Assembly: GCF_056746865.1 (NCBI RefSeq)
Contig: NZ_CM163382.1
Reading direction: 5' to 3' (one strand)
Length of the DNA: 64,000 nt
The position numbers were made by a program, and so were the translations under genes. This document shows positions 1,004 to 24,555 of this stretch, piece after piece. Each line of letters opens with the position of its first letter. Positions within the stretch are counted from its first letter, which is position 1. Under the pieces are notes generated by a model. It was not told the origin of the DNA. It ran no database searches and was given only the letters and a program-made list of their open reading frames with translations.

Positions 1004-1019
1004 AAATTATCCTTATTAT

Positions 1020-2542: not shown

Positions 2543-2619
2543 GTCATGCCCCAGATATCCAGAACACAACACCCTAACATAGCGTTACTTAAGGGAAATT
2601 GACCGCCGACACACTCTTA

Positions 2620-2985
2620 TCATTCGCCGCGATAGATGCAACCTGCGGTGCAGGTTTCTTTCACCATAACCGCACTTAACAGCGGAACAACCGGTTTAAC
2701 CTGATCCCAAATCCATTTTGCTAAAACCTCGCTGGTCGGGTTTTCCAGGCCAGGAATATCATTGAGATAATAGTGATCGAGGCGCTCGTAGGTTGGCTTA
2801 AACGCCGCTTTTAGTTCAGCGAAATCGATAATCCAGCCCGTATGCGGATCGACTTCCCCGGTAATTTCCAGTCGCACCATAAAGGAATGCCCGTGCAGGC
2901 GACCACATTTATGCCCTTCCGGGACGTGTGGTAAGCGGTGAGCGGCTTCGAAGGTGAAATCTTTAAATAACGTGGTGGACATCAT
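2620..2985 (-). CDS. queD: 6-carboxy-5,6,7,8-tetrahydropterin synthase
   Basis: ORF 2620..3069; internal start [35 protein letters not shown] gives 121 aa with the QueD/PTPS His/Cys zinc-site pattern. Confidence 0.8.
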
Positions 2986-3099
2986 AATTTCTCTACAGGA
3001 CGATAAAACCGCCGTAGAGTACCGGAAAGGCTGTTTTTTCGCATTATCTAAAACGACTTTGTTGCGCAAAATCGCTGATTTATCTTAATGATTGGCTAA

Positions 3100-3300
3100 A
3101 TTCATTTGTTTTTCATTGGGTTGGTTAATCTGTTTTGTTGTTAAAGACTATTGCTAAAACAGGTTAGTCGATTTGGTTATTAGTTATCGCTATCCCGTCT
3201 TTAATCCACACCGTTCACCCCGTTAACCTTACCTTCTCTTCTGTTTTATGGGCGCTGACAGGGCGCAGAAACAGCTTTGCTTACTGGAACATAACGACGC
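3100..3300 (+). promoter_or_regulatory. AT-rich cysJIH upstream control region (expected CysB-activated promoter)
   Basis: About 230 bp AT-rich non-coding spacer between divergent queD and cysJ. The promoter assignment comes from knowledge of the cys regulon; I did not map individual sites. Confidence 0.3.
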
Positions 3301-5100
3301 ATGACGACACAGGTCCCACCTTCCGCGTTGCTTCCGTTGAACCCGGAGCAACTGGCACGCCTTCAGGCGGCCACGACCGATTTAACTCCCACCCAGCTTG
3401 CCTGGGTTTCTGGCTATTTCTGGGGCGTGCTCAACCAGCAGCCTGCTGCGCTTGCAGCGACGCCAGCGCCCGCCGCAGAAATGCCGGGTATAACTATTAT
3501 CTCCGCCTCGCAAACCGGCAATGCGCGCCGGGTTGCTGAAGCATTACGCGATGATTTATTGGCGGCAAAACTGAACGTTAAGCTGGTGAACGCGGGCGAC
3601 TATAAATTCAAACAAATCGCCAGCGAAAAACTGCTTATCGTGGTGACGTCAACGCAAGGGGAAGGGGAACCGCCGGAAGAAGCCGTCGCGCTGCATAAGT
3701 TCCTGTTCTCCAAAAAAGCGCCGAAGCTGGAAAACACCGCATTTGCCGTGTTTAGCCTCGGCGATAGCTCTTATGAATTTTTCTGCCAGTCCGGGAAAGA
3801 TTTTGACAGCAAGCTGGCGGAACTGGGCGGTGAACGCCTGCTCGACCGTGTCGATGCCGACGTTGAATACCAGGCTGCTGCCATCGAGTGGCGCGCCCGC
3901 GTGGTTGATGTTCTGAAGTCCCGTGCGCCTGTCGCGGCACCTTCGCAATCCGTCGCTACTGGCGCGGTAAATGAAATCCACACCAGCCCGTACAGCAAAG
4001 ACGCGCCGCTGGTGGCGAGCCTTTCGGTTAACCAGAAAATTACCGGGCGTAACTCTGAAAAAGACGTTCGCCATATCGAAATTGACTTAGGTGACTCTGG
4101 CCTGCGTTATCAGCCGGGTGACGCGCTGGGCATATGGTATCAGAACGATCCGGCACTGGTGAAAGAACTTGTCGAACTGCTGTGGCTGAAAGGCGATGAA
4201 ACTGTCACCGTTGACGGCAAAACGCTGACCCTGAGCGAAGCGCTCCAGTGGCACTTTGAACTGACCGTCAACACCGCCAACATTGTTGAGAACTACGCCA
4301 CGCTTACCCGCAGCGAAACGCTGCTGCCGCTGGTGGGCGATAAAGCGAAGTTACAGCATTACGCCGCGACCACGCCGATTGTTGACATGGTGCGTTTCTC
4401 TCCGGCGCAACTGGATGCCGAAGCGCTGATTAATCTGCTGCGCCCGCTGACCCCGCGCCTGTATTCCATCGCCTCCTCGCAGGCGGAAGTCGAGAACGAA
4501 GTGCACGTTACCGTTGGTGTGGTGCGTTACGACGTGGAAGGCCGCGCCCGTGCGGGTGGTGCCTCCAGCTTCCTCGCGGATCGTGTGGAAGAAGAGGGTG
4601 AAGTCCGCGTCTTTATCGAACATAACGATAACTTCCGCCTGCCAGCCAATCCGGAAACGTCGGTGATTATGATTGGCCCAGGCACCGGCATCGCGCCGTT
4701 CCGCGCCTTTATGCAGCAACGCGCCGCCGACGAAGCGCCGGGGAAAAACTGGCTGTTCTTTGGCAACCCGCACTTTACGGAAGATTTCCTCTACCAGGTG
4801 GAATGGCAGCGCTACGTCAAAGAGGGCGTGCTGACGCGTATCGATCTTGCCTGGTCGCGCGATCAAAAAGAAAAAATTTACGTACAAGACAAACTGCGCG
4901 AACAGGGCGCGGAGCTGTGGCGCTGGATCAATGACGGTGCCCACATTTATGTCTGCGGCGACGCTAATCGCATGGCGAAAGATGTTGAGCAGGCACTTCT
5001 GGAAGTGATTGCCGAATTTGGTGGCATGGACACCGAAGCGGCGGATGAATTTTTAAGTGAGCTGCGCGTAGAGCGCCGTTATCAGCGAGATGTCTACTAA
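3301..5100 (+). CDS. cysJ: Sulfite reductase [NADPH] flavoprotein alpha subunit
   Basis: 599 aa ORF with an N-terminal flavodoxin-like segment and a C-terminal FAD/NADPH reductase region ([20 protein letters not shown]); stop overlaps the cysI start. Confidence 0.95.
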
Positions 5101-6812
5101 TGAGCGAAAAACATCCAGGGCCTTTAGTGGTCGAAGGAAAACTGACAGACGCCGAGCGCATGAAGCTTGAAAGCAACTACCTGCGCGGCACCATTGCGGA
5201 AGATTTAAACGACGGTCTGACCGGCGGCTTTAAGGGCGATAACTTTCTGCTGATCCGCTTCCACGGCATGTATCAACAGGATGACCGCGACATTCGCGCC
5301 GAACGTGCTGAACAGAAGCTGGAGCCGCGCCACGCGATGCTGTTGCGCTGCCGTCTGCCGGGTGGCGTGATCACCACCAAACAGTGGCAGGCGATCGATA
5401 AATTTGCCGGTGAAAACACCATTTATGGCAGCATTCGCCTGACCAACCGCCAGACGTTCCAGTTCCACGGCATTCTGAAAAAGAACGTCAAACCGGTGCA
5501 CCAGATGCTGCACTCGGTCGGTCTTGATGCGCTGGCGACTGCTAACGACATGAACCGTAACGTACTCTGCACCTCGAACCCTTACGAGTCGCAGTTGCAC
5601 GCGGAAGCATATGAATGGGCGAAGAAAATCTCTGAACATCTGCTGCCGCGTACCCGCGCGTATGCGGAGATCTGGCTCGATCAGGAAAAAGTCGCCACCA
5701 CCGATGAAGAACCGATCCTCGGTCAGACTTATTTGCCGCGTAAATTCAAAACCACGGTAGTGATCCCGCCGCAGAACGATATCGATCTGCACGCCAACGA
5801 CATGAACTTCGTGGCGATCGCCGAAAACGGCAAGCTGGTGGGCTTTAACCTGCTGGTGGGCGGTGGGCTTTCCATCGAGCACGGCAACAAGAAAACCTAC
5901 GCCCGCACGGCGAGTGAGTTTGGTTATCTGCCGCTGGAGCATACGCTGGCGGTGGCAGAAGCCGTCGTGACGACTCAGCGCGACTGGGGTAACCGTACCG
6001 ATCGTAAAAATGCCAAAACCAAATACACGCTGGAGCGCGTGGGGGTTGAGACGTTTAAAGCGGAAGTGGAGCGTCGCGCGGGGATCAAATTTGAACCGAT
6101 CCGTCCATATGAGTTCACCGGACGCGGCGATCGTATTGGCTGGGTTAAAGGCATTGATGATAACTGGCACCTGACGCTGTTTATCGAAAATGGTCGCATC
6201 CTTGATTATCCTGGGCGTCCGCTGAAAACCGGCCTGCTGGAGATCGCGAAGATCCACAAAGGTGATTTCCGCATTACGGCGAACCAGAATCTGATCATCG
6301 CCGGAGTGCCGGAAAGCGAGAAAGCGAAGATCGAGAAGATCGCCAAAGAGAGCGGGTTAATGAATGCCGTCACGCCACAGCGTGAAAACTCAATGGCCTG
6401 CGTGTCATTCCCGACTTGCCCGCTGGCGATGGCCGAAGCGGAGCGTTTCCTGCCGTCTTTTATCGACAACATCGATAATTTAATGGCGAAACATGGTGTC
6501 AGCGATGAGCATATCGTGATGCGTGTAACAGGCTGCCCGAACGGTTGTGGTCGCGCGATGCTGGCGGAAGTGGGCCTGGTGGGTAAAGCGCCGGGTCGCT
6601 ACAACCTGCATCTTGGCGGCAACCGCATTGGGACACGTATCCCACGGATGTATAAAGAAAACATCACCGAACCGGAAATCCTGGCGTCGCTTGATGAACT
6701 GATAGGGCGCTGGGCGAAAGAGCGCGAAGCGGGTGAAGGCTTCGGCGACTTTACGGTGCGTGCGGGCATCATTCGCCCGGTGCTCGATCCGGCGCGCGAT
6801 TTGTGGGATTAA
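5100..6812 (+). CDS. cysI: Sulfite reductase [NADPH] hemoprotein beta subunit
   Basis: 570 aa ORF with siroheme/4Fe-4S Cys motifs ([26 protein letters not shown]); start overlaps the cysJ stop at 5100. Confidence 0.95.
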
Positions 6813-6870
6813 CCATCAGCCCGGTCTTGTAGGCCTGATAAGACGCGTGAGCGTCGCATCAGGCAAGGCA
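6813..6870. repeat. REP-type palindromic element in the cysI-cysH spacer
   Basis: Sequence gtaggcctgataagacgcgtgagcgtcgcatcaggc; near-identical copies occur at about 290-370 and 48550-48690. Confidence 0.5.
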
Positions 6871-6885
6871 AACAGTGAGGAATCT

Positions 6886-7620
6886 ATGTCCAAACTCGAT
6901 CTAAACGCCCTGAACGAACTGCCGAAGGTAGATCGCATTCTGGCGCTGGCAGAAACTAACGCCGAACTGGAAAAACTGGACGCTGAAGGCCGCGTTGCCT
7001 GGGCGCTGGATAATCTGCCCGGTGAATATGTACTTTCTTCCAGTTTCGGCATTCAGGCGGCGGTGAGCCTGCATCTGGTGAATCAGATTCGCCCGGATAT
7101 TCCAGTGATCCTCACCGATACGGGTTACTTGTTCCCGGAAACCTACCGCTTTATTGACGAGTTAACGGACAAACTCAAACTCAACCTGAAAGTGTACCGT
7201 GCTACCGAAAGCGCAGCCTGGCAGGAAGCACGCTACGGTAAACTATGGGAGCAGGGCGTTGAAGGCATTGAAAAGTACAATGACATCAACAAAGTCGAAC
7301 CGATGAACCGGGCGCTGAAAGAACTGAATGCGCAAACGTGGTTTGCTGGCCTGCGCCGCGAACAATCCGGCAGTCGCGCCAATTTACCGGTGCTGGCAAT
7401 TCAGCGTGGCGTATTTAAAGTGCTGCCGATTATCGACTGGGATAACCGAACGATATATCAGTATCTGCAAAAACATGGCCTGAAATATCACCCATTATGG
7501 GATGAAGGATATTTATCGGTCGGTGATACCCATACAACCCGTAAATGGGAACCCGGCATGGCGGAAGAAGAAACGCGTTTCTTTGGCTTAAAAAGAGAAT
7601 GTGGGTTACACGAAGGGTAA
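6886..7620 (+). CDS. cysH: Phosphoadenosine phosphosulfate (PAPS) reductase
   Basis: ORF 6733..7620; start at [15 protein letters not shown] gives 244 aa with the C-terminal ECGLH motif of PAPS reductases. Confidence 0.95.
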
Positions 7621-7637
7621 ATATTGCCGGATAAATT

Positions 7638-7676
7638 AAACGCCTCTGTCAGAAATGATGGGGGCGTTTTTATTTT
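7638..7676 (+). terminator. Probable intrinsic terminator after cysH
   Basis: Stem aacgcc...ggcgtt followed by a T-run (ggcgtttttatttt) about 20 bp after the cysH stop. Confidence 0.4.
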
Positions 7677-7883
7677 GCGAGCAGCATTCCTGATTTTAAA
7701 CGTGAACGCCGCTGGAAGAATTATCAGGTATAGAATGGCGTTGGGTGCTTGAGGCTGTCTGGCGTTAAGCATTCGCGAGGTTCCAGATGGACAAAAGCCC
7801 CAGGCGATATTTCTATCAACCTGAGGCCAGCGTTCGAACCTAAGCAATTCGAATGTTAGTCTCTTCTTTGCAGGGAGGCAAGA

Positions 7884-8036
7884 CATGCTGACAAAATATG
7901 CCCTTGTGGCAATCATCGTACTGTGTTGTACAGTACTGGGATTCACGCTGATGGTAGGCGACTCGTTGTGTGAGTTGAGTATCAGAGAACGTGGTATGGA
8001 GTTTAAGGCAGTTCTCGCTTACGAATCGAAGAAGTA
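7884..8036 (+). CDS. hokX: Hok/Gef-family small membrane toxin (type I toxin-antitoxin locus)
   Basis: 50 aa ORF ([50 protein letters not shown]) with a hydrophobic N-terminus and conserved Cys, typical of Hok proteins; SD ggagg 6 nt upstream. Absent from the ORF track because it is under 60 aa. Confidence 0.6.
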
Positions 8037-8058
8037 GCCACCACGCGGGGGTAAAACC

Positions 8059-9397
8059 CATAAGCGCTAACTTAAGGGTTGTGGTATTACGCCTGATATG
8101 ATTTAACGTGCCGATGAATTACTCTCACGATAACTGGTCAGCAATTCTGGCCCATATTGGTAAGCCCGAAGAACTGGATACTTCGGCACGTAATGCCGGG
8201 GCTCTAACCCGCCGCCGCGAAATTCGTGATGCTGCAACTCTGCTACGTCTGGGGCTGGCTTACGGCCCCGGGGGGATGTCATTACGTGAAGTCACTGCAT
8301 GGGCTCAGCTCCATGACGTTGCAACATTATCTGACGTGGCTCTCCTGAAGCGGCTGCGGAATGCCGCCGACTGGTTTGGCATACTTGCCGCACAAACACT
8401 TGCTGTACGCGCCGCAGTTACGGGTTGTACAAGCGGAAAGAGATTGCGTCTTGTCGATGGAACAGCAATCAGTGCGCCCGGGGGCGGCAGCGCTGAATGG
8501 CGACTACATATGGGATATGATCCTCATACCTGTCAGTTCACTGATTTTGAGCTAACCGACAGCAGAGACGCTGAACGGCTGGACCGATTTGCGCAAACGG
8601 CAGACGAGATACGCATTGCTGACCGGGGATTCGGTTCGCGTCCCGAATGTATCCGCTCACTTGCTTTTGGAGAAGCTGATTATATCGTCCGGGTTCACTG
8701 GCGAGGATTGCGCTGGTTAACTGCAGAAGGAATGCGCTTTGACATGATGGGTTTTCTGCGCGGGCTGGATTGCGGTAAGAACGGTGAAACCACTGTAATG
8801 ATAGGCAATTCAGGTAATAAAAAAGCCGGAGCTCCTTTTCCGGCACGTCTCATTGCCGTATCACTTCCTCCCGAAAAAGCATTAATCAGTAAAACCCGAC
8901 TGCTCAGCGAGAATCGTCGAAAAGGACGAGTAGTTCAGGCGGAAACGCTGGAAGCAGCGGGCCATGTGCTATTGCTAACATCATTACCGGAAGATGAATA
9001 TTCAGCAGAGCAAGTGGCTGATTGTTACCGTCTGCGATGGCAAATTGAACTGGCTTTTAAGCGGCTCAAAAGTTTGCTGCACCTGGATGCTTTGCGTGCA
9101 AAGGAACCTGAACTCGCGAAAGCGTGGATATTTGCTAATCTACTCGCCGCATTTTTAATTGACGACATAATCCAGCCATCGCTGGATTTCCCCCCCAGAA
9201 GTGCCGGATCCGAAAAGAAGAACTAACTCGTTGTGGAGAATAACAAAAATGGTCATCTGGAGCTTACAGGTGGCCATTCGTGGGACAGTATCCCTGACAG
9301 CCTACAAAACGCAATTGAAGAACGCGAGGCATCGTCTTAACGAGGCACCGAGGCGTCGCATTCTTCAGATGGTTCAACCCTTAAGTTAGCGCTTATG
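8059..9397 (+). mobile_element. IS186 (IS4 family) insertion sequence
   Basis: 23-bp terminal inverted repeats cataagcgctaacttaagggttg (8059-8081) and its reverse complement (9375-9397), flanked by duplicated ggggtaaaacc; total 1339 bp. Confidence 0.8.
8108..9226 (+). CDS. insL: IS186 transposase
   Basis: 372 aa ORF filling the space between the inverted repeats; recognised as the IS186/IS4-family DDE transposase from memory. Confidence 0.85.
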   Translation: MPMNYSHDNWSAILAHIGKPEELDTSARNAGALTRRREIRDAATLLRLGLAYGPGGMSLREVTAWAQLHDVATLSDVALLKRLRNAADWFGILAAQTLAVRAAVTGCTSGKRLRLVDGTAISAPGGGSAEWRLHMGYDPHTCQFTDFELTDSRDAERLDRFAQTADEIRIADRGFGSRPECIRSLAFGEADYIVRVHWRGLRWLTAEGMRFDMMGFLRGLDCGKNGETTVMIGNSGNKKAGAPFPARLIAVSLPPEKALISKTRLLSENRRKGRVVQAETLEAAGHVLLLTSLPEDEYSAEQVADCYRLRWQIELAFKRLKSLLHLDALRAKEPELAKAWIFANLLAAFLIDDIIQPSLDFPPRSAGSEKKN

Positions 9398-9419
9398 GGG
9401 TAAAACCCCGCGTATTGAA

Positions 9420-9580
9420 TTGTGATGGTTTGGTCTCCTGCACCCTTTTTTAATTTATATTGTTTATGTGAATATTATGCCTATGTTTATTATTCATATA
9501 TATTACTGATGAAAATTATTTGATTATTCATAATGTAAATATTTTATTGGACGATATATATCACAGATAATTTTTAATAT
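9420..9580 (+). promoter_or_regulatory. Extremely AT-rich cas3 upstream region (likely H-NS-silenced promoter)
   Basis: About 160 bp of more than 80% A+T immediately upstream of cas3; cas promoters in E. coli are known H-NS targets. Confidence 0.35.
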
Positions 9581-12280
9581 ATGCGTAAATATCCTTTAAG
9601 TTTACTGAAGGATAAAAATATTGTGACTTTTTTTGATTTCTGGGGAAAAACCCGACGCGGCGAGAAAGACGGGGGCGACGACTATCACCTTCTTTGCTGG
9701 CATTCGCTGGATGTAGCCGCGATGGGCTATTTAATGGTTAAAAGCAATTGCTTCGGACTGGCTGACTATTTTCGTCAATTAGAGATTTCTGACAAGGAAC
9801 AGGCGGCTCAATTTTTCGCCTGGTTGTTGTGCTGGCACGATACTGGTAAATTTGCCCGCTCATTTCAGCAACTTTACCTGCACCCGAAACTCAGGGTTCC
9901 GGAAGGTGCTAGAAAAAATTACGAAAAAATCTCTCATTCAACGCTGGGCTACTGGTTGTGGCATCATTATTTAAGTGAATGTCAGGAGTTACTTCCTTCC
10001 TCTTCACTCTCTCCCCGCAAACTTACACGTGTAATAGCGATGTGGATGCCCATAACTACCGGGCATCATGGTCGCCCGCCTGACCGTATTGATGAACTGG
10101 ATAATTTTCTGCCTGAAGACAAAGCTGCCGCGCGAGATTTTCTTCTTGAAATCAAACCACTGTTTCCGCTCATAGAGATCCCCGCATTCTGGGATGATGA
10201 TGAGGGCATTGAACTTATAAAACACCTTTCCTGGTATATCTCTGCAACCGTCGTACTCGCAGACTGGACGGGATCGTCAGCGCGGTTTTTTCCACGCGTT
10301 GCACAGGCAATGGATATTAAAGATTACTGGCAGAAGGCTTTAGTTCAGGCTCAAAACGCCTTAACCGTCTTTCCTCCAAAAGCACAAACCGCGCCTTTCA
10401 CCGGAATTAATACGCTGTTTCCTTTTATTGAGAATCCGACACCGTTACAGCAAAAGGTGCTGGATCTGGATATCAGCCAGCCAGGGCCACAGTTATTTAT
10501 TCTGGAAGATGTGACTGGCGCAGGTAAAACGGAAGCGGCGCTTATCCTGGCGCACAGGTTGATGGCTGCGGGTAAAGCGCAGGGTTTGTTTTTTGGCCTG
10601 CCAACAATGGCAACGGCCAATGCCATGTACGATCGACTGGTCAAAACCTGGCTTGCTTTCTATTCGCCAGAGTCCCGCCCCAGCCTGGTGCTGGCACACA
10701 GTGCCCGAACATTAATGGACCGCTTTAATGAATCACTCTGGTCCGGTGATTTAGTCGGGTCAGAAGAACCGGATGAACAAACGTTCAGTCAGGGATGTGC
10801 GGCCTGGTTTGCCGACAGTAACAAGAAGGCGCTACTGGCTGAAATTGGCGTCGGCACGCTGGATCAGGCGATGATGGCTGTGATGCCGTTCAAACATAAT
10901 AATCTGCGGCTTCTGGGACTGAGTAACAAAATCCTGCTGGCTGATGAGATCCATGCCTGTGACGCTTACATGTCATGCATTCTTGAAGGGCTGATCGAGC
11001 GGCAGGCGCGTGGCGGAAACAGCGTCATTTTGCTTTCTGCCACGTTATCTCAACAGCAGTGCGACAAACTCGTTGCTGCCTTTGCGCGTGGTACAGAGGG
11101 CCAGCAAGAAGCTCCGTTCCTGGAAAAGGATGATTACCCCTGGCTGACGCACGTTACGAAATCCGATGTGCATTCACACCGGGTAGCGACGCGCAAAGAC
11201 GTTGAGCGTAGCGTGAGCGTGGGTTGGCTTCATAGCGAACAAGAATGTATTGCGCGTATCGAATCGGCAGTAAGTCAGGGGAAATGCATCGCCTGGATCC
11301 GGAATTCTGTCGATGACGCTATTAAGGTTTATCGTCAGTTGCTTGCCCGCGGCGTCATTCCTGCTTCCAGCCTTTCTCTGTTTCATAGCCGCTTTGCTTT
11401 TAGCGATCGCCAGCGAATTGAAACGGAAACGCTGGCACGCTTCGGTAAAGAAGATAGCTCACAGCGTGCCGGAAAAGTCCTCATTTGTACTCAGGTCTTA
11501 GAGTCGAGCGTTGATTGCGATATGGACGAAATGATTTCCGACCTGGCCCCTGTTGATTTGCTGATCCAGCGAGCGGGGCGATTACAGCGGCATATCCGCG
11601 ATATTAATGGTCAGTTAAAGCGTGACGGAAAAGACGAGCGTTCCCCTCCTGAATTGCTGATTCTGGCCCCCGTCTGGGACGACGCTCCAGGTGACGAATG
11701 GTTCGGCAGTGCCATGCGTAACAGTGCATATGTCTATCCCGATCATGGACGAATCTGGCTGACGCAGCGTGTACTGCGTGAGCAAGGCGCTATTCAAATG
11801 CCACACGCAGCCCGCCTTCTTATTGAATCAGTCTACGGTGAGGACGTGGTAATGCCGGAAGGATTTGCCCGCAGCGAGCAGGAGCAAGTGGGCAAATATT
11901 ACTGCGATCGCGCAATGGCTAAAAAGTTTGTGCTGAACTTCAGGCCTGGCTATGCCGCCAATATCAACGATTACCTTCCGGAAAAGCTGTCGACACGTCT
12001 GGCGGAGGAGTCTGTTTCCCTGTGGCTGGCTACCTGTATTGCCAGTGTGGTGAAGCCTTATGCCAACGGTGCTCACGCATGGGAAATGAGCGTTGTCAGA
12101 GTGCGTCGAAGCTGGTGGAAAAAACATCGGGATGAGTTTTCTTTACTGGAAGGGGAAGCGTTCAGGCAGTGGTGCATTGAACAGCGGAAAGATCCGGAGA
12201 TGGCAAACGTGATTTTAGTTACCGATGACGAAAGTTGCGGGTATTCGGCTATGGAAGGATTGACTGGCAAGGTTGGTTGA
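9581..12280 (+). CDS. cas3: CRISPR-associated nuclease/helicase Cas3 (type I)
   Basis: 899 aa ORF with an N-terminal HD domain (HSLDVAAM...HDTGKF), helicase Walker A (DVTGAGKTEA) and a DExH box (LLADEIH). Confidence 0.9.
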   Translation: MRKYPLSLLKDKNIVTFFDFWGKTRRGEKDGGDDYHLLCWHSLDVAAMGYLMVKSNCFGLADYFRQLEISDKEQAAQFFAWLLCWHDTGKFARSFQQLYLHPKLRVPEGARKNYEKISHSTLGYWLWHHYLSECQELLPSSSLSPRKLTRVIAMWMPITTGHHGRPPDRIDELDNFLPEDKAAARDFLLEIKPLFPLIEIPAFWDDDEGIELIKHLSWYISATVVLADWTGSSARFFPRVAQAMDIKDYWQKALVQAQNALTVFPPKAQTAPFTGINTLFPFIENPTPLQQKVLDLDISQPGPQLFILEDVTGAGKTEAALILAHRLMAAGKAQGLFFGLPTMATANAMYDRLVKTWLAFYSPESRPSLVLAHSARTLMDRFNESLWSGDLVGSEEPDEQTFSQGCAAWFADSNKKALLAEIGVGTLDQAMMAVMPFKHNNLRLLGLSNKILLADEIHACDAYMSCILEGLIERQARGGNSVILLSATLSQQQCDKLVAAFARGTEGQQEAPFLEKDDYPWLTHVTKSDVHSHRVATRKDVERSVSVGWLHSEQECIARIESAVSQGKCIAWIRNSVDDAIKVYRQLLARGVIPASSLSLFHSRFAFSDRQRIETETLARFGKEDSSQRAGKVLICTQVLESSVDCDMDEMISDLAPVDLLIQRAGRLQRHIRDINGQLKRDGKDERSPPELLILAPVWDDAPGDEWFGSAMRNSAYVYPDHGRIWLTQRVLREQGAIQMPHAARLLIESVYGEDVVMPEGFARSEQEQVGKYYCDRAMAKKFVLNFRPGYAANINDYLPEKLSTRLAEESVSLWLATCIASVVKPYANGAHAWEMSVVRVRRSWWKKHRDEFSLLEGEAFRQWCIEQRKDPEMANVILVTDDESCGYSAMEGLTGKVG

Positions 12281-12371
12281 GATGCCTGCGACAGGGCTCT
12301 CTGAATAGTTGATACACCGAAAAGGATGGAATGATGGACAACCGACCTAGGATGGTCTTTTTTACGAGAGG

Positions 12372-13940
12372 ATGCGTATGAACTCGTTTTCACTTCTGAC
12401 AACCCCGTGGTTGCCCGTTCGTTATAAAGACGGAACGACAGGCAAACTGGCGCCTGTCGATCTGGCGGATGAAAATGTTGTCGATATTGCTGCGCCACGG
12501 GCAGATCTCCAGGGAGCGGCATGGCAGTTTTTGCTGGGGCTACTACAAACCAGCTTTGCGCCAAAAGATCATCGTCGTTGGGATGATATCTGGGAAGACG
12601 GACTGGAATCTGAAAAGCTACGGGAAGCATTGCTGTCCTTAGAACACGCTTTCCAGTTTGGGCCAGATTCCCCTTCATTTATGCAGGATTTCGAGGCGCT
12701 CACAGGAGATAAAGTTCAGGTCGCTTCGCTACTGCCTGAGATTCCCGGCGCTCAAACAACGAAGTTTAATAAAGACCACTTTATCAAGCGTGGTGTAACG
12801 GAATACCTGTGCCCACATTGTTCTGCGTTAGCTCTGTTCTCCCTACAGTTAAATGCGCCGTCAGGTGGTAAAGGCTACCGCACCGGTTTACGCGGCGGTG
12901 GGCCGATGACCACTCTGATTGAATTACAGGAATATCAGGGCAATCAACAAACGCCCTTGTGGCGCAAACTGTGGCTCAATGTGATGCCGCAGGACGAAGC
13001 CGACTTACCGCTACCCAAAAAATTTGACGATCTGGTTTTCCCCTGGCTTGGCCCGACGCGTACCAGCGAACTGGCCGGTGCGGTGGTAACCGATGATCAG
13101 GTTAATAAACTCCAGGCGTACTGGGGAATGCCGCGGCGTATTCGTATTGATTTTAATACCACGACAGTCGGCAACTGCGATATTTGCGGCGAGCAGAACG
13201 ACGCGCTCCTGAGCCTGATGACGACCAAAAATTACGGCGCGAATTATGCCATGTGGCAGCATCCCTTAACGCCTTACCGTGTACCCCTTAAAGAGGGCGG
13301 CGAGTTTTACTCGGTCAAACCACAACCAGGCGGTTTAATCTGGCGCGACTGGTTAGGCCTTATCGAAACGGGTAAATCAGAAAACAATACGGAACTTCCC
13401 GCGCTGGTGGTGAAACTCTTTAATGCCAGCAGTCTCAAGCAGGCAAAAGTGGGCCTGTGGGGATTTGGTTATGATTTTGACAACATGAAAGCGCGCTGTT
13501 GGTACGAACACCATTTTCCGCTGCTGCTCGATAAAAAAGAAGGCCAGATACCGAAGCTGCGGCTGGCTGCGCAAACGGCTTCACGGATTCTGAGTCTGTT
13601 ACGGAGTGCATTGAAAGAAGCGTGGTTCTCCGATCCAAAAGGTGCACGGGGTGATTTCAGTTTTGTGGATATCGACTTCTGGAACAAAACTCAGCATCGC
13701 TTCCTGAGGTTAGTGCGCCACATTGAAGAAGGTCAGGATGCGGATGAATTACTCAGCAAATGGCAAAAGGAAATTTGGTTATTCGCGCGTCAGGATTTTG
13801 ACGAGCGTGTCTTCACCAATCCATATGAGCCCGTTGATTTGAAACGCGTCATGACCGCGCGCAAGAAATATTTTACAACATCGGCGGAGAAGCAAAATGC
13901 TAAAGCCGCCAGGGAGAAAAAGCAGGAGGCTGCTGAATGA
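12372..13940 (+). CDS. cse1: Cascade large subunit Cse1 (CasA), type I-E
   Basis: 522 aa ORF directly after cas3; the central segment GKGYRTGLRGGGPMTTLIELQ resembles the conserved Cse1 glycine-rich region. Confidence 0.85.
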   Translation: MRMNSFSLLTTPWLPVRYKDGTTGKLAPVDLADENVVDIAAPRADLQGAAWQFLLGLLQTSFAPKDHRRWDDIWEDGLESEKLREALLSLEHAFQFGPDSPSFMQDFEALTGDKVQVASLLPEIPGAQTTKFNKDHFIKRGVTEYLCPHCSALALFSLQLNAPSGGKGYRTGLRGGGPMTTLIELQEYQGNQQTPLWRKLWLNVMPQDEADLPLPKKFDDLVFPWLGPTRTSELAGAVVTDDQVNKLQAYWGMPRRIRIDFNTTTVGNCDICGEQNDALLSLMTTKNYGANYAMWQHPLTPYRVPLKEGGEFYSVKPQPGGLIWRDWLGLIETGKSENNTELPALVVKLFNASSLKQAKVGLWGFGYDFDNMKARCWYEHHFPLLLDKKEGQIPKLRLAAQTASRILSLLRSALKEAWFSDPKGARGDFSFVDIDFWNKTQHRFLRLVRHIEEGQDADELLSKWQKEIWLFARQDFDERVFTNPYEPVDLKRVMTARKKYFTTSAEKQNAKAAREKKQEAAE

Positions 13941-14473
13941 GTATTGTAAAAGAGGAGCACAAAGCCACGCTGCGTAAATGGCACGAAGAGTTGCAGGAAA
14001 AACGCGGCAATCGTGCCAGTCTGCGGCGTAGCACAACGGTTAATGATGTTTGTCTGTCAGAAGGGTTTCGTTCTCTGCTGATGCAGACCCACACTTTGTG
14101 GAAAATTGAAGCACAAGAGTGGCGTTTTACCGCACTGGCGCTGGTCGCCGCAGTTAGCGCCAATGTTAAAGCTATTGATGAACGGCAGCCTTTTGCCGCG
14201 CAGCTGGCGGCGGTAATGTCGGAGGGGCGTTTTACTCGCCTGTCGGCAGTAAAAACGCCTGATGATTTACTGCGTCAGTTACGTCGCGCGGTCAAATTAT
14301 TAAATGGTTCCGTCAATCTTATCTCTTTGGCAGAAGATATTTTCCGCTGGTGCCAGGAGAGCGACGACCTGCTCAATCATCACCGCCGCCAGCAGCGGCC
14401 AACAGAATTTATCCGTATCCGCTGGGCGCTGGAATATTACCAGGCTGGCGACGCCGATAACGAACAAAATTAA
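13937..14473 (+). CDS. cse2: Cascade small subunit Cse2 (CasB), type I-E
   Basis: 178 aa basic helical protein; 4-nt overlap with the cse1 stop. Confidence 0.85.
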   Translation: MSIVKEEHKATLRKWHEELQEKRGNRASLRRSTTVNDVCLSEGFRSLLMQTHTLWKIEAQEWRFTALALVAAVSANVKAIDERQPFAAQLAAVMSEGRFTRLSAVKTPDDLLRQLRRAVKLLNGSVNLISLAEDIFRWCQESDDLLNHHRRQQRPTEFIRIRWALEYYQAGDADNEQN

Positions 14474-14487
14474 TAAAGGACTATCTC

Positions 14488-15543
14488 ATGACGACATTTA
14501 TTCAGCTTCATTTGTTAACCGCTTACCCTGCTGCCAACCTTAACCGTGATGACACCGGTGCGCCAAAAACTGTGGTACTGGGTGGAGCAACGCGTCTGCG
14601 CGTTTCCTCACAAAGTCTGAAACGTGCGTGGCGCACTTCTGCACTTTTTGAACAGGCACTGGCGGGCCATATTGGTATTCGCAGTGGGCGTATTGCGCGT
14701 GAGGCGGCAACTATCCTGATTGAGAAAGGCATCGAAGAGAAAAAAGCCATCGAATGGGCGGCAAAAATTGCGGATTATCTTGGGAAAGCTAAAAACGACA
14801 AAAAACCAAAAGATCCGCTCACTAACGCCGAAACTGAACAGCTAGTCCATATCAGCCCGGCAGAATTTGACGCCGTAAAAGCGCTGGCCCATCAACTGGC
14901 CGAAGAAAAGCGCGCGCCAAAAGAGGAAGATCTCGCTTTGTTACGTAAAGATCGCATGGCGGTAGATATCGCTATGTTTGGTCGTATGCTGGCGAATAAA
15001 CCCGAATTTAATGTTGAAGCCGCCTGCCAGGTCGCGCATGCATTTGGTGTCAGTGAAACGATTGTCGAAGATGATTTTTTCACCGCCGTTGATGATTTGC
15101 GCCAGGCTTCTGAAGATGCCGGTGCCGGGCATCTTGGTGAAACCGGATTCGGTTCTGCGCTGTTCTACACCTATATCTGCATCGATAAAGATCTGCTGGT
15201 CGAAAACCTCGGCGGTGACGAAGCGTTAGCTAATCAGACCTTGCGCGCCTTTACGGAAGCCGCACTTAAAGTCTCCCCAACCGGCAAACAGAACAGCTTT
15301 GCCAGCCGTGCCTACGCCTCCTGGGCGCTGGCAGAAAAAGGCACTGAACAACCACGCTCTCTGGCGGCGGCTTTCTATGAACCCATTAATGGCACCCGGC
15401 AGTTAGATGTGGCGGTGCAGCGTATTACAACGCTTCGCGAAAATATGAATACGGTCTATGAACAGAAGACCGAATGCGCAAGCTTTGACGTGATGAACAA
15501 ACAGGGAAGCATGAAGGACGTGCTGGACTTTATCTGCGCGTAA
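14488..15543 (+). CDS. cas7: Cascade backbone subunit Cas7 (CasC/Cse4), type I-E
   Basis: 351 aa ORF with N-terminus MTTFIQLHLLTAYPAANLNRDDTGAPKTV...LRVSSQSLKRAWR matching the Cas7e N-terminal consensus. Confidence 0.85.
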   Translation: MTTFIQLHLLTAYPAANLNRDDTGAPKTVVLGGATRLRVSSQSLKRAWRTSALFEQALAGHIGIRSGRIAREAATILIEKGIEEKKAIEWAAKIADYLGKAKNDKKPKDPLTNAETEQLVHISPAEFDAVKALAHQLAEEKRAPKEEDLALLRKDRMAVDIAMFGRMLANKPEFNVEAACQVAHAFGVSETIVEDDFFTAVDDLRQASEDAGAGHLGETGFGSALFYTYICIDKDLLVENLGGDEALANQTLRAFTEAALKVSPTGKQNSFASRAYASWALAEKGTEQPRSLAAAFYEPINGTRQLDVAVQRITTLRENMNTVYEQKTECASFDVMNKQGSMKDVLDFICA

Positions 15544-15553
15544 GGGGCGGCTA

Positions 15554-15628
15554 ATGAGCCAATATTTGATTTTTCAGCTTCATGGGCCAATGGCATCCTG
15601 GGGCGTCGATGCCCCGGCGAAGGGAACA
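15554..15628 (+). pseudogene. cas5: 5' fragment of cas5 (casD); coding similarity ends after about 25 codons
   Basis: Translation MSQYLIFQLHGPMASWGVDAPAKG matches the Cas5e N-terminus (MxxYLIxxLxGPMxxWG), but the remainder (TIQHHTRPVIARILRVLKSILYTFLYTF...) is non-Cas-like and runs into repeats. No cas6e/cas1/cas2 follow. Confidence 0.6.
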
Positions 15629-15685
15629 ATACAACATCACACAAGGCCAGTAATAGCGCGAATCCTGCGAGTTCTAAAATCAATT

Positions 15686-15709
15686 CTATACACATTTCTA
15701 TACACATTT
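15686..15709. repeat. 12-bp tandem direct repeat (tctatacacatt x2) at the element's left end
   Basis: Exact tandem duplication read directly from the sequence. Confidence 0.4.
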
Positions 15710-16113
15710 ATCCCTCGCTTGAGGGTTATGCGTCATCGTTATCGGCTATCTCGCTGGTGGATGATCACGGATGGCCTGATATCTACAGCCGCCTTAAAAA
15801 GCTGTACCCGACAAGCATTACTGCGTATCGGGTTCGTTCGCTCTTTCTACTCGTGGCAGATGAGTTTATCGGTGTGATTTTATCGGGCGAGGGTATTGTA
15901 TCAGGCATCCCCTTTTCTATGCAGATTTGCATAGTTCCGAATGGTGGCGTTATGGAAGCCTCCCATATCAGCATCATGCCCACCAGCGTGAAGTATTTTT
16001 TTATTTCGCGGGTGTAAAAATTTGACGAGGCGGGCGGTCCCATAAGCAATGGATTGTAGGGATTTCGCTCCCCCCCTCCTGAATGCAATTTTTCGTATAT
16101 ATATACAAAACAG

Positions 16114-16269
16114 TGCGGGTTATGCGGGTTACCGGGTTATCTTAGTATGCTAACTATTTTTTGTTCTTTAGTATCAATATGTTGCAAAATACACTGTTCA
16201 TTATTCAAGCATCACATAACCCGCAAAACATCCCAAATAACCCGCAAACGCCCCAAAATAACCCGCAAA
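16114..16269. repeat. Iteron cluster A (crr-like cis replication region)
   Basis: Three direct copies gcgggtta(t/c) at 16114-16140, an AT-rich spacer of about 75 bp, then three inverted copies ataacccgcaaa at 16216, 16237 and 16258 (21-bp spacing). Confidence 0.6.
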
Positions 16270-16876
16270 CACATTGCTGAAAGCAGGGGTTGATAGTTCC
16301 ACTGGTGCCACAGAACGGCTGAATACGGTAACTGTTGCTGGTGGTCTGTCCTGTTGTCGTTCCAGTCTCATCAAATTGAGAGGCAAGACAAAGTGCATTT
16401 TTGCACTATAGCCAAAGCCTCATAAAACAGAGTTACCCCCACAGGCTGGCAAACCATTACCCAACGCAATTAAGTGCGTCAGAATCGATTACAGCGCGTT
16501 CCTGTGGCACGTTGTTGCCGTTCTCAGCAGTGAAAGGAGAGAGTGAAAAGCGCATATCTATTACTGTTGAGGGGTGTAGCGGCATATATCGCGAATATCC
16601 ACGCCCTTAATCCCGATACCGTCACGGCGCATTGAGATCCACCAGAAGATTAAGATAGTTTTTACCTGAAATTATCCAAATAATTGTTTTAACTGATTAA
16701 TTTTTCGAATATCTATTGTTAGGGAATAAATCATCAGATACACCATAAAACGACATCTTTCAGGGTGTAGAAGATGCAAAGCCGGTACTGAAGAAAAGAC
16801 AAAGAATATGAATGGCTGGCCACACGATGGAAGGATTGTCCATTGAAGGATAAATCCCCGTGGTACAAGTTTTGGT

Positions 16877-16900
16877 AAGCCCGCAGCGCGGGCTTTTTTG
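16877..16900 (+). terminator. Intrinsic terminator (aagcccgc-agc-gcgggctt + T6)
   Basis: Perfect GC-rich hairpin followed by tttttt; ends a roughly 250 bp region without a convincing ORF. Confidence 0.5.
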
Positions 16901-16971
16901 TGGACGAAACAAAAGTCAGTGCTACATTCATTGACGCCACATCGAGGTGGCTTATAGATGGAAATTTCACA

Positions 16972-17133
16972 ATGAAAAAAGCATTTGCTGCACTGTTCGT
17001 TTTGTTGTCTCTGGTAGCTTCAACTCAGGCCTTTGCCGGTCGTTGTCAGCACGACAGCGATACTGCCGCTGACGGCTCCCGCTGCGGTGGGCGTTCTGCG
17101 GATTCCCGCCCGGGCGGCGGTGGCATTCGTTAA
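16972..17133 (+). CDS. Small secreted Gly/Arg-rich protein (hypothetical)
   Basis: 53 aa: MKKAFAALFVLLSLVASTQAFA signal peptide followed by a Gly/Arg/Cys-rich tail; the internal start of the 16900..17133 ORF is preferred because of the signal peptide. Confidence 0.35.
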   Translation: MKKAFAALFVLLSLVASTQAFAGRCQHDSDTAADGSRCGGRSADSRPGGGGIR

Positions 17134-17138
17134 AAACA

Positions 17139-17160
17139 AGGCCGCGAAAGCGGCCTGTTT
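17139..17160. terminator. Bidirectional intrinsic terminator between convergent genes
   Basis: Hairpin aggccgc-gaaa-gcggcct with A/T-rich flanks on both sides, between the 16972..17133 (+) and 17163..18014 (-) genes. Confidence 0.5.
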
Positions 17161-17162
17161 GA

Positions 17163-18014
17163 TCACTGTGCAGTTTTCGCTGATCGATTTTCAGCTCTAA
17201 ATTCAAGAACCGTTTCAATATTTCTTTCCTTCAGCATATCAATAACATTTTTATTCATTTGACTATCACTGGTTAATAACTGGTAAACGTTGCTTCTCTC
17301 TTTATCAGAATTTTCTTTAACAGCTGCTTTGCATGCCAAATGCTTATTGAAATTTTCTACATCGCTAGTACAGGAATTTACGGCTGCTGATGAAATATCA
17401 GACGCTGAAGAAACACCATCATCCAAACGTTTTATAGCATTTTCTATACATGAGTTAAGGGAATAAACGACAACTGAGCGATACCCTTCAGACGCACACC
17501 ATTCTAAATTTCTTGAAGGATCGAGTGGTTTTACTTCGCTGGATTGAATTAACTTGTCAAAAACTGACTTATATTCAATCTGTTTTTTATCTATAGCCCA
17601 TACTTCAGTAGCTGATTTATAATTCCCCGTATGCCTATTAACATCAAATCCATGTTTTATAAGCAAATCTGCCCATGAAAGATTTATTGATTCATTGTTA
17701 TGAGGCCATTTTCCTGTCAGAACCGCCCCCATAGACCCCATATATCCGCCATATGATGGTATAGCACCATGGCTCAGTAACTTCTCAGCAACCACAGGGC
17801 AATTAATTACATAAGAGGCGTAAAGCCCATTCCATAAAGCCCCTCTATAGTAATCGCCACGATTAGGTTCTTTTAAGTCGATAGCCTTTGATAATTGTTC
17901 ACACGTTTTGCATGCATCAAAGTTATCCTTATTGCATTGCAATGAACTGGCGGCTGTAGGATTTACAGAGACTATTGAAAGCACTATGCCAAAAAACAAA
18001 TTTATTTTTTTCAT
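17163..18014 (-). CDS. Secreted Cys-rich protein of unknown function (third gene of cargo operon)
   Basis: 283 aa; N-terminal signal peptide MKKINLFFGIVLSIVSVNPTAAS, multiple Cys pairs, possible ankyrin-like helical repeats (weak); start lies 1 nt after the stop of the 1129 aa gene. Confidence 0.7.
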   Translation of the reverse strand: MKKINLFFGIVLSIVSVNPTAASSLQCNKDNFDACKTCEQLSKAIDLKEPNRGDYYRGALWNGLYASYVINCPVVAEKLLSHGAIPSYGGYMGSMGAVLTGKWPHNNESINLSWADLLIKHGFDVNRHTGNYKSATEVWAIDKKQIEYKSVFDKLIQSSEVKPLDPSRNLEWCASEGYRSVVVYSLNSCIENAIKRLDDGVSSASDISSAAVNSCTSDVENFNKHLACKAAVKENSDKERSNVYQLLTSDSQMNKNVIDMLKERNIETVLEFRAENRSAKTAQ

Positions 18015-18015
18015 C

Positions 18016-21000
18016 CTATTTCATCTGCTCTTCAACTTTATTTAGTAATGGTGATATCGCCCACAGATTCTGAAAAGGTAGCATTTTACGGACAGCGTGG
18101 GTTTGCTGGCTGTCAAATTCTCCGTTAAGTACACCATTTGCAACCGTCGCGGCATCACCGCCAAGATCAAAGGTAGGACCAAGTAAAGCACCAATAGCAT
18201 TACGACTCTGAAACCTTGATACCGGAGGCGCACCAAACATCGCGCCAAGACCAAACCTACCGCCGCTTATGTTCTCAACGGTATTCAGCGGCTCAGAGAG
18301 CCAGCCAAGCATTCCGCCCCGGTCGATCCCCTCTTTCACAAGGTTATTCCAGCTGTAGTCGATATCGCGACCGCTTAACTTCTGTTTCATCATATAGACC
18401 ATTGAGCCAAGCGCAATCGTGCCAAGCGCACCAAGATAGAATGAAGCATCGCCCTGCTGGATACCAGATACCAACACCCTGTTATGCTGTGCGAAGATAA
18501 ACGTTTTGAACTGCGTGATCATCTTCCAGCCTTCTTTACTAAAAAACAGCGGTGTATCACCTACGCCAGGCGTTACAATCACTGAGTCTACATCTTTCAG
18601 CACTGCAGACTGGAAAATCTCTCTAGCGAAACGGTCATCCCACAGATGACTATGCCCGGTTAACAGCCCGTCCATATCCTCTCCGTGCTTCCCGAATTGC
18701 TCCCCGATTCGGCGCAGAACATCTTCATTGATGCCGACCTGTGCCATCTTCCGCATTTCACTTTTGGCGAGCGTGCCACCAGCAGAAACCTGGCGAGCCG
18801 CGTCAAGTATCCTCGACTGCACTATCATCCCGGACCATGATTTAAGTGCGCTGTTCCACTGATTCATCAGCGTCCAGTTACCGAATTTCTGCGTCATCCA
18901 GTTCAGGCCTCGCTCAGCGGCGCTTCTCCGGCTATAGGGGTCAGTAAGATCCGCTATAGCCTTTGTACGCGTAGACAGGACATAATCAAGCCCAACGGCC
19001 ATTTCTCGCAAATCCCTGGTTGCAATTTTCACTGAGTCCATATTTTTAAGCATGCTTACCATTGGTCCGAGAGATTTTCTCAGGCCATGCTGCATCATCG
19101 GTCGCATCAGATCAGTTGCAGCGGAGACGGTCATTCCACCAAGCAAACGGAGGAAGTTAATATTCCTAGCAACTCGCCCGGCACGAACAAAGAAACTGCG
19201 TGGATCTTGAGGTGCGCCGTAAGTACCAAGCAGTCGGTCACGCATAGCCGTAATATCCCTAATATCAGCCTCCCGTTGCTTCTCAAGAGCTGCACGTCGT
19301 TTAGGTGTTTTAGCCTCTTTTATTAGCCGGGTATATTCCTCACTAACCTGACGGATTTGCTCCCCCATATCTTTACGGCCAAACTGCGCAGTCAGCTCAA
19401 TTTCTGGTGCCACCTGCCGGAGATAACTTTCCATGATGTAGTTAACATCTGATTCAAGAAAATCTTCTATACGCTCATCAGGAATAAGCAGCGTTCGGCT
19501 TTTAGTGAAACCAGCCCGACCAACGAGTCTCTCTGGGATAATATCGGCTGGTACAAGCCCGGAAGGTGCGCCTATTATTTTATTCACGATCTCGTCAGCA
19601 GCGTCCTCTGCTTCCTCTCGGGATAGAGGCTCCATCTGCTTCAGTGCTCGCTCGCGGCTTGCATTCAGCCTTGTGGTTGAATTTGCCCGTTTTTGCAGTC
19701 GGCGAAGCTCAGAACGATATTTCCGTGGATTATCCAGCAACTCCATATGGCGCTGATAGACAGGAAGCTCACTCTTTGCCTGCGCTATATCATCAAGGCG
19801 TGTTTTAAGGTCAGAGCTTTCTTTCATCATTCTTGCCTGAAGTTTTTCTGATGAAGTCTCGGCCAACTCTTTTTCTATTCTTGTAAGACGCGCCTGTGTG
19901 TCAGTCTCCTGAGATATAAGCTTATTTCGTTTATCCAGTTCTTCCATGAGTAGAATTTTTTTACCAGACCATTTCTCCGCTTCAGCGATTTCACTAGCGA
20001 GAGCATCAGCGCGCGGTGCCGATTCCTCTGCAGTTTTTAGCAATGAATTTATCCTTTCAATTCGCTGACCTGCTTTGTCAGCACCTTTGGCACTAATCCC
20101 TTGTATCCAGTTGGCAATTCGCCCTCTGAATTCAGTGCGGTCGGAAAGTATCTTATCGAACTTATAAATGCGGGGAAGATAACTTTTCGCCGTCACGACA
20201 TCGATATCCTCAGGAAGGATCCCCAGTTCCTGCATACGGGCTTTTGTGGTCTCGAAAATGGGGCGGATTCTGGCGGCTGCTTGTGAAACCTCAGGAATAT
20301 CACTCTGATCACCACGGCGCATAGCCATGCCAACAGCTTCATTGAAATCAATAAAGCTCATCCTCTTCACGCCGCGGGCGCTGACAGATTTGCTGTACTG
20401 CTGGTAAGCATCACGAGTGGCTTCCATCTGCTTATAAAGCATGGCGTCGTATTGCTTAATCTTAGTCTCGACTGCCGTAAACGTAGCCAACCCCTCATCA
20501 TTTTTGGCGAAGAAATAGTTATTTTCGGCAAGCTGCTGGTTAATCTGACGGGAGACAAGAGATGGTGATTGCGCCAAGCGGCCAGCAGGAGTGACACTCA
20601 ACGTTTTGTTAGCAAGTCCAAGTCCAGCGAGCTGTTCCTGATCGAGTGTGGTATTGAAAACCTGAGCTGCACCAATGCTTTGAGGAGAATCCATACCTCG
20701 CAAATGATTACCTACTGAGTTAACCACTGCCTCGCGCGCGCTAGGTCCAGCAAGTAGCTGTGCACCAGCACCAAGGATCCCACCAACGAGAGCATCAACA
20801 ACAACGTTCGATACGCTCTCCATCGGTGAGCGAGCTTCCTGAGTGGCCTGCAATGCGGCCTCTGAAGCAACACTGCCAGCAGCATTGGCTAAAGCAAAAC
20901 GTCCGGCTGTTTCTGCAATACGACCGCCACGAACGACAGCGCCGAACGGAATAAACATAGAAATCGCATTGAATGGATCTGCTAATCTCATTGCTACAGA

Positions 21001-24152: not shown

Positions 24153-24248
24153 CAGTAACCTCCTATTTTGAATCGGGAGTCAGAATTCATAAAACCTGAG
24201 TTAGATAACATTGGCGTCCCTCTGCTTTGATGCTGTACCAGCGATTCA

Positions 24249-24455: not shown

Positions 24456-24555
24456 AGCAATTTCCTCTTACTGACTAAACTATGCACATTATTGATCTGA
24501 AAAAGTGGTAGATAAACATATTTCTATCACAAAAACAGATTAATTGATTTCAGCC

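Follow-up and report, generated by a model that had tools for sequence, protein, structure and literature searches.

The 64,000-nucleotide stretch of contig NZ_CM163382.1 (NCBI RefSeq assembly GCF_056746865.1), called the window in the following, is part of an Escherichia coli chromosome. It carries a type I-E CRISPR-Cas operon that is interrupted within cas5e, followed directly by an integrative island of 19.5 kb whose other end is seated at the tRNA gene glyU. The break in cas5e lies in the attachment (att) core of the island, and the orientation of the flanks identifies the window as one end of a chromosomal inversion. The features concerned are, in positions of the window:

9581 to 12280, plus strand: cas3, intact, 899 amino acids (aa), NCBIfam Cas3.
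12378 to 13940, plus strand: cse1/casA, intact, 520 aa; open reading frame (ORF) named by NCBIfam at 12372/12378-13940.
13937 to 14473, plus strand: cse2/casB, intact, 178 aa, NCBIfam match.
14488 to 15543, plus strand: cas7e/casC, intact, 351 aa, NCBIfam match.
15554 to 15622, plus strand: 5' remnant of cas5e with 21 wild-type codons, MSQYLIFQLHGPMASWGVDAP.
15554 to 15877, plus strand: chimeric ORF of 107 aa, the Cas5e N-terminus continuing into the left arm of the island; it served as search probe.
15616 to 15622, plus strand: crossover segment GGCGAAG, common to cas5e and the att core.
15623 to 35097: integrative island of the glyU family, 19.5 kb; in the nearest relative, glyU is free of an island.
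33719 to 34933, minus strand: tyrosine integrase, P4-like, 404 aa, intact, 100 % identical to the integrase of the CS5L island.
35097 to 35115, plus strand: att core of 19 bp, TTGGAGCGGGCGAAGGGAA, equal to the 3' end of glyU.
35098 to 35171, minus strand: tRNA-Gly(CCC) gene glyU, the primary attachment site, adjoining the integrase gene.
35250 to 40080: ygeR/actS and xdhABC, native chromosome right of glyU, in reversed orientation relative to the cys-cas block.

The products of the four genes preceding the break, Cas3, Cse1, Cse2 and Cas7e, gave NCBIfam equivalog matches and were 100 % identical to those of 118UI, which possesses a complete operon; an earlier note on this DNA, written from the sequence alone, had correctly taken them as intact. 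The same note ended cas5 after about 25 codons at 15628 and placed island DNA behind it, which was close: the identity to cas5e stops at 15622, whereas the identity to the island, which is also found beside yqeG in other E. coli, begins at 15616. The 3' 678 nucleotides (nt) of cas5e are not in the window, hence no full-length reading frame can be recovered, and the correction of a sequencing error considered in the note would not yield one. Cas6e, Cas1e, Cas2e and Iap as tblastn queries had zero matches in the 64 kb, the 5 kb that follow the break position in 118UI had no blastn match there, and neither the E. coli CRISPR repeat (29-bp class, up to 3 mismatches) nor an array-like tandem repeat was present, in agreement with the note. 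A complete, interference-competent type I-E locus is thus not contained in the window, which lacks a whole cas5e as well as the adjacent cas6e, cas1e, cas2e and the array; the CRISPR arrays of relatives hold about 17 and 9 spacers. Cascade consists of Cse1(1)Cse2(2)Cas7(6)Cas5(1)Cas6e(1) (PMC3764190). No intact Cas5e can be formed, and Cascade assembly and interference are presumably abolished, as the note had foreseen. Its reservation that the system may function if the missing genes survive elsewhere does not hold, because cas5e itself is split and the system is dead even with the distal genes retained. Cas6e and cas1-cas2 would be cut off from the casA promoter and lose their expression; cas3 to cas7e can presumably still be transcribed, with the cas5e stub reading on as the chimeric ORF. 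The adaptation module had been affected before: cas1e is interrupted by an internal stop and annotated as a pseudogene in 118UI (11530-12453), WP8-S18-ESBL-07 (23230-24153) and SW071620 (36746-37669; all positions of the compared stretches), so that adaptation was already lost in the lineage before the cas5e event.

The position of the break was compared with the ends of the island. GGCGAAG represents codons 22-24 of cas5e in E. coli type I-E operons of the non-K-12 variant; casD of the K-12 type has no GGCGAAG. The segment 15616-15626 (GGCGAAGGGAA) is a repeat of 35105-35115. The most similar island, that of CS5L (84 % coverage, 98.6 % identity, identical integrase), has the 19-bp core TTGGAGCGGGCGAAGGGAA on both sides. 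Of this direct repeat at the far boundary, 11 bp are left in the window and the outer part is replaced by cas5e. The break in cas5e is a crossover within the island attachment site and not a random end. The island shows the traits of a tRNA-targeting integrative element: the integrase gene lies beside the tRNA 3' end, a direct repeat marks the far boundary and a relative has the empty site. The exact integrase protein occurred in 2239 assembly blocks, and all ten places sampled were at ygeR-glyU; glyU is the strongly preferred primary site of this integrase. Both arms carry paired CTATACRC motifs, putative arm-type binding sites of the integrase:

15686 to 15709, plus strand: tandem pair of CTATACAC motifs in the left arm, with only two more forward copies in 64 kb.
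34963 to 34982, plus strand: two CTATACRC motifs in the integrase-side arm.

The nearest relative among 5426 complete genomes was SW071620. Its operon is complete, cas3-casABCDE-cas1-cas2 with arrays and a cas1e annotated as pseudogene, and its glyU is empty, the entire type III secretion locus ETT2 and then yqeG coming next (compared stretch 941001-981000). Window positions 1-15622 aligned to the plus strand of this genome (1064818-1080440) with one synonymous nucleotide polymorphism, located in an insertion sequence (IS), and one missing C over 15.6 kb, while positions 35200-60000 aligned to the minus strand (917966-942766) with 100.0 % identity over 24.8 kb; a base-by-base check of the 1.8 kb beside glyU had zero mismatches. 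Right of glyU, the window continues with ygeR, xdhABC and ygeV and then in K-12 gene order up to xdhD. The cysJIH-cas block and xdhA are on opposite strands in 118UI and on one strand in the window. The GC skew reverses its sign across the junction, with +0.042 to the left and -0.018 to the right of it. In SW071620, glyU and the cas5e site are 137.6 kb apart, and the heptamer in cas5e has the opposite orientation to the glyU core, so that a site-specific recombination between the two sites inverts the interval instead of deleting it. The window thus represents one end of an inverted glyU-cas5e interval of about 137 kb. The missing part of cas5e together with cas6e, cas1, cas2 and the array was most likely moved about 137 kb away and not deleted. 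In the comparison to SW071620 with its intact operon, cas3 to cas7 showed no substitutions, by which the event appears very recent, as the earlier note had suspected. That note had also proposed a comparison with close strains, and SW071620 answered it with the intact operon, the empty glyU and the opposite orientation of cys-cas versus glyU-xdh. Its term truncated is right in that the operon is interrupted in cas5e and misleading in that it implies loss: the break is an att-core crossover combined with an inversion, and the distal genes were probably moved. ETT2 is not beside glyU in the window; if retained, it is located at the far end of the inversion.

A search for the junction of the window gave no match in complete E. 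coli genomes, nor did pattern scans in GTDB representatives or JGI metagenomes; pattern scans for the reciprocal and right-hand junctions had zero matches in GTDB representative genomes and JGI metagenomes, and an exact look-up of the chimeric 107-aa ORF and of the predicted 231-aa 'Cas5e found neither on record in the assembly index. The unique event suggested by the search for the window junction alone was overturned by a protein search with the chimeric 107-aa ORF, a search in which only cas5e chimeras were sought. The same cas5e nucleotide was joined to diverged islands of the glyU family in at least five other genomes. Three junction types can be told apart by sequence, namely CCGGCGAAGGGAAY, GAGCGGGCGAAGTGCGTCATACC after the integrase arm and GAGCGGGCGAAGTGCGTCATACC after the glyU flank. 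The contigs with the chimera all read cysJIH-hok-cas3-cse1-cse2-cas7-cas5'/island. The left arms of the islands, which belong to one family (PerC, ProQ, SSB and DUF927 primase), are of at least four diverged kinds, and different cas alleles are present as well, Cas7 having 349, 351 or 357 aa. All aligned junctions break at one nucleotide, ...GATG(C)nGGCGAAG/GGAAY..., with a precise join in four of them, a join 1 nt short in the window and one 4 nt short in GCA_018864705.1. The latter has the architecture of the window, xdhA-ygeR-glyU-int...island...cas5'-cas7-cse2-cse1-cas3, with an integrase 95 % identical to that of the window. A special integrase variant was considered as cause and discarded, since the enzyme of GCA_018864705.1 equals, at 100 % identity, one from an ordinary glyU site.

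The other products expected of such a recombination were also observed. In the complete genome of ETEC1747, a 10-kb island lies inside cas5e with GGCGAAG at both ends, followed by 'cas5e-cas6e-cas1-cas2-CRISPR-iap; the right junction reads ...TTTGTTTGGAGCGGGCGAAG joined to TGCGTCATACC. Here cas3 is frameshifted (14536-17234 of the compared stretch) and the integrase has decayed to an Arm-domain fragment. The same event is met here in an older state that is already decaying. SRR23378764 contains the predicted reciprocal product: yqeG, 320 bp of the downstream flank of glyU, TTGGAGCG, GGCGAAG and 'cas5e-cas6e-cas1-cas2, with a cas part 100 % identical to SW071620. On the yqeG side this sequence is without ETT2, like FDAARGOS_1298 (99.6 % identity). 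In GCA_031020925.1 and SRR17709973 the integrase arm is joined to 'cas5e, again with the cas allele of SW071620. The pattern of an off-target recombination is thus present in the sequences, with the crossover in a core match, the overlap at both ends of the ETEC1747 island and the reciprocal product in SRR23378764. The upstream cas genes are intact in five of the six junction-bearing genomes, ETEC1747 being the exception, which fits young events. Either junction was found in exactly one of about 2666 complete genomes carrying the cas5e variant. Judged from these sequences, cas5e of the non-K-12 operon variant appears to be a rare but recurrent off-target of the very common glyU integrase. A search in the second reading frame of the left arm for host-gene chimeras beyond cas5e gave only canonical, tandem or attP-like contexts and had limited power.

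The best explanation for the locus, and in our judgement a probable one, is that the glyU island recombined with the secondary attachment site GGCGAAG in cas5e, inverting the glyU-cas5e interval and splitting the operon. It combines the att-core breakpoint, the flip in orientation, the recurrence at one nucleotide, the complete insertion in ETEC1747 and the reciprocal junction found elsewhere. The island would use its P4-like tyrosine integrase, which primarily targets the glyU 3' end, to recombine its att site with the cas5e heptamer; catalysis and order of events are here inferred. In the window, the left arm adjoins the initial 21 codons of cas5e and the integrase arm is still at glyU. The genes cas3-cse1-cse2-cas7e-cas5e' stay in the window, and 'cas5e-cas6e-cas1(pseudogene)-cas2-CRISPR would be placed at the other end of the inversion, either directly beside the downstream flank of glyU or behind another island copy; the location of these genes in this genome is predicted from its relatives. 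The insertion form seen in ETEC1747 would represent the canonical reaction of attP with a pseudo-attB. For the inversion three routes are conceivable: the distal att site of an island resident in glyU may recombine with cas5e, an island resident in cas5e may recombine with an empty glyU, or two copies may flip by homologous recombination, after which the excision of one copy would leave the junction of SRR23378764. The cas5'/island junction is real under every scenario.

Several points weigh against this explanation. GGCGAAG occurs 14 times per 64 kb on both strands, and a genome has roughly 1100 such sites besides that in cas5e, thus a 7-bp match alone is common. Beyond the heptamer, the flank in the tRNA body shares 8 of 15 further bases with the cas5e site (P about 0.02), a modest similarity. 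The action of the integrase on the cas5e site is itself deduced, and the reciprocal junction is known from other genomes only, not from that of the window. The integrase arm directly upstream of 'cas5e in GCA_031020925.1 and SRR17709973, of the same cas allele, makes a two-copy state possible, and in such a state the 19.5-kb repeat could be flipped by homologous recombination or mis-resolved by the assembler.

That the genome holds islands at both cas5e and glyU, in inverted orientation, and that the path read in the window stems from a RecA-mediated flip or a wrong turn of the assembler, is rather unlikely. Islands of the glyU family do insert into cas5e, as in ETEC1747, where each junction probe matched two places, suggesting that the genome has another island arm at a different location. 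In GCA_031020925.1 and SRR17709973, integrase arm, GGCGAAG and 'cas5e follow each other, the cas side being 100 % identical to that of SW071620, and these contigs stop 23-76 bp into the arm, as at repeats. The window, however, is contiguous through the whole island, SRR23378764, of the same cas allele, has a reciprocal junction in single-copy form, and the integrase arm beside 'cas5e in the drafts is TTTTGAGCG in contrast to TTTGGAGCG at glyU in the window. With two copies, the other island would be followed by the distal cas genes. The earlier note had named a misassembly as a possible source of the junction. A mis-join at a random point is refuted by a break in the att core that recurs in other genomes, whereas a wrong path through two island copies is possible. 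A chimeric join, or an illegitimate recombination at microhomology, that involves no integrase would account for the short shared stretch of only 7 bp and for the one base absent beside the join. It would leave unexplained that the break falls inside the 19-bp att core, that at least four diverged island arms from independent assemblies share this breakpoint, and that both junctions are present in ETEC1747 and the reciprocal product in SRR23378764. Microhomology was rejected as contradicted by the recurrence at one nucleotide, and we give this origin practically no credence. Very improbable is also a plain truncation, an inserted island with downstream cas genes and array lost from the genome. 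These genes are indeed not in the window, but a deletion cannot reverse the orientation of cys-cas versus glyU-xdh, on which ground a simple deletion was discarded; a loss would moreover take eno, pyrG and relA, all located between the two sites, and reciprocal and right-hand junctions that keep 'cas5e to cas2 occur in genomes with the same allele.

One detail of the junction allows more than one interpretation. The run of C beside the crossover (15612-15615) is C4 in the window and C5 in relatives. The C4 form was also present in the otherwise unrearranged cas5e of two read sets, SRR30896127 and ERR10498630. The missing C may belong to the recombination event, GCA_018864705.1 lacking 4 nt at the same spot, or may equally predate it, C4 being known from an unrearranged cas5e. 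Possible origins are a frameshift already present before, a sequencing error in the homopolymer or a footprint that integration and excision left behind. With C4, a re-inversion could not restore the cas5e frame.

The spacers of the relatives were compared to the island with regard to selection for the loss of interference. Spacer 10 of the iap array in SW071620 (38056-39121 of the compared stretch) matched one island gene:

19129 to 19160, minus strand: protospacer in the gene for a 1129-aa DUF919 protein.

The match comprises 28 of 32 bases with a perfect seed (positions 1-10) and mismatches at positions 11, 15, 23 and 30. The protospacer adjacent motif (PAM) is ATA, or TAT in target-strand notation, a non-consensus PAM that conferred partial resistance to plasmid transformation (PMC3764190). 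In a survey of E. coli spacers, up to 4 mismatches were the criterion for a target, and spacer-prophage pairs within one genome were rare (PMC10910852). Spacer 10 is also present in 118UI, WP8-S18-ESBL-07 and GCA_031020925.1, in total in 128 complete genomes and always inside arrays only; a search for its origin gave no credible phage match. It is known from relatives only. The target is cargo, copied from a podoviral prophage and not present in other island variants. Among 41 spacers compared with 11 island sequences, spacer 10 was the single match; the other 40 had none. A general CRISPR targeting of the island family was rejected with one of 41 spacers matching, and that one in cargo.

That the inactivation was selected, the rearrangement being kept since it ended a self-targeting of the island or the island family gaining by disabling type I-E systems, is improbable. 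Such a selection would be in line with the perfect seed in the DUF919 gene, the partial interference with this PAM against plasmids, the retention of spacer 10 in GCA_031020925.1, the rarity of spacer-prophage pairs within E. coli genomes and the repeated events at the cas5e site. On the other hand, cas1e was already a pseudogene in the lineage, and cas5e may have been dead earlier, as a C4 frameshift form of the unrearranged gene circulates with the same cas allele. The 40 unmatched spacers and the location of the sole match in cargo also argue against it, and the apparent preference for cas5e may be an ascertainment bias of a search restricted to cas5e chimeras. It is equally doubtful that the glyU family uses the non-K-12 cas5e as a functional alternative att site, switching off Cascade in hosts that target the element or its helper phage. 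If this were true, the insertion form would in principle be reversible by excision and could act as a 'regulated gene integrity' switch or as anti-CRISPR by integration. An enrichment of cas5e events over other core-matching sites would indicate a counter-defence strategy.

Events of this kind are known for other mobile elements. The integration of lambda at secondary sites (Shimada et al. 1975) and the inversion promoted by HK022 Int between an att site of the prophage and a secondary one (Dorgai, Oberto and Weisberg 1993) are both documented as cited in PMC6379469. The lambdoid integrases share with the present case a tyrosine integrase, a secondary site with only a short common overlap, the inactivation of the host gene and the inversion between inverted sites; different are the P4-like, tRNA-targeting integrase, the site in a cas gene, the size of the inversion of ~137 kb and the repetition in natural isolates. 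Mageeney et al. 2020 (PMC7192596) described an integrase with a conserved target that occasionally disrupts a protein gene with a similar core, and their rimO/rhtB case raised the same question of frequent off-target integration versus a regulatory use termed 'regulated gene integrity'. Neither cas5e nor CRISPR appears there, and here inversions occur as well as insertions. The inactivation of cas genes by IS (Sheng et al. 2023, PMC10359306) likewise abolishes CRISPR-Cas immunity in natural genomes by a mobile element, however by transposition at many positions instead of a site-specific recombination of a tRNA-targeting island at one nucleotide. Prophages of Streptococcus pyogenes integrate within the CRISPR-Cas locus (Varble et al., bioRxiv 10.1101/2020.10.09.333658), but with the repeat as regular attB, while here glyU is the regular attB and cas5e the rare alternative. 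The integrase of pTN3 in Thermococcales (Cossu et al. 2017, PMC5495485) also causes large chromosomal inversions, with low specificity and long homologies in contrast to the 7-bp core match. A literature search of incomplete coverage found no description of an integrative island recurrently striking cas5e. The kind of event is known; the target cas5e and the recurrence appear to be new.

A cas locus that seems truncated may thus be the remaining half of an operon whose other half was moved by an integrase-made inversion, and surveys of gene presence would misclassify such strains. A common tRNA-targeting integrase with a reproducible off-target in a CRISPR effector gene would add a disabling route to those by IS insertion and anti-CRISPR proteins. 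The locus also offers a natural, sequence-defined case for the study of target choice by tyrosine integrases and of large inversions.

The content of the island was inspected for relations to phages and satellites. Three genes on the minus strand (17163-24152; 283, 1129 and 915 aa) are identical to an internal-virion block resembling T7 gp14/15/16, which belongs to podoviral prophages of the BPP-1-like type that have an endosialidase tailspike. The ejection-protein module of a phage is thus present in the island as a copy, and the island may be a satellite of these podoviral phages. Scans of the ten largest island ORFs against PHROGs and NCBIfam found none of the P4 genes psu, delta and sid and no packaging or capsid-redirection genes of phage-inducible chromosomal islands. 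Clusters of AACCCGCAAA-type repeats are located near the left end of the island (16114-16140 and 16216-16272) and, inverted, just 3' of the DUF927 primase gene (27003-27056), a layout that resembles ori and crr of P4, as far as the sequence alone tells. In place of the PerC/ProQ segment of CS5L, the window has an IS200/IS605-type element (24743-26490) with a 402-aa TnpB, a member of the RNA-guided nuclease family. Among the entries of nr, ORF P0050 (MFGAGEGNN...) runs from the integrase arm over the core to the left arm and could represent attP or tandem islands. ORF P0049 spans the att core after a different mobile element with resolvase and YecR, which indicates a stacking of other elements at the att site in glyU.

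The left part of the window, in front of the cas genes, has the following features:

Left end of the window, minus strand: ygcP, ygcO, ygcN and queD.
Left of the cas block, plus strand: cysJ, cysI and cysH.
7885 to 8037, plus strand: toxin gene of the hok/gef family between cysH and cas3, 100 % identical to Hok/Gef of 118UI.
8060 to 9396, plus strand: IS421 (IS186/IS4 family), 185 bp upstream of cas3, with an NCBIfam IS4 transposase and boundaries set by comparison with 118UI.

IS421 is flanked by a target duplication of 12 bp (8048-8059 and 9397-9408). The same insertion was present in 1382 of the 5426 complete E. coli genomes, thus a large share of the strains with this operon variant carry an IS in the interval from hok to cas3.

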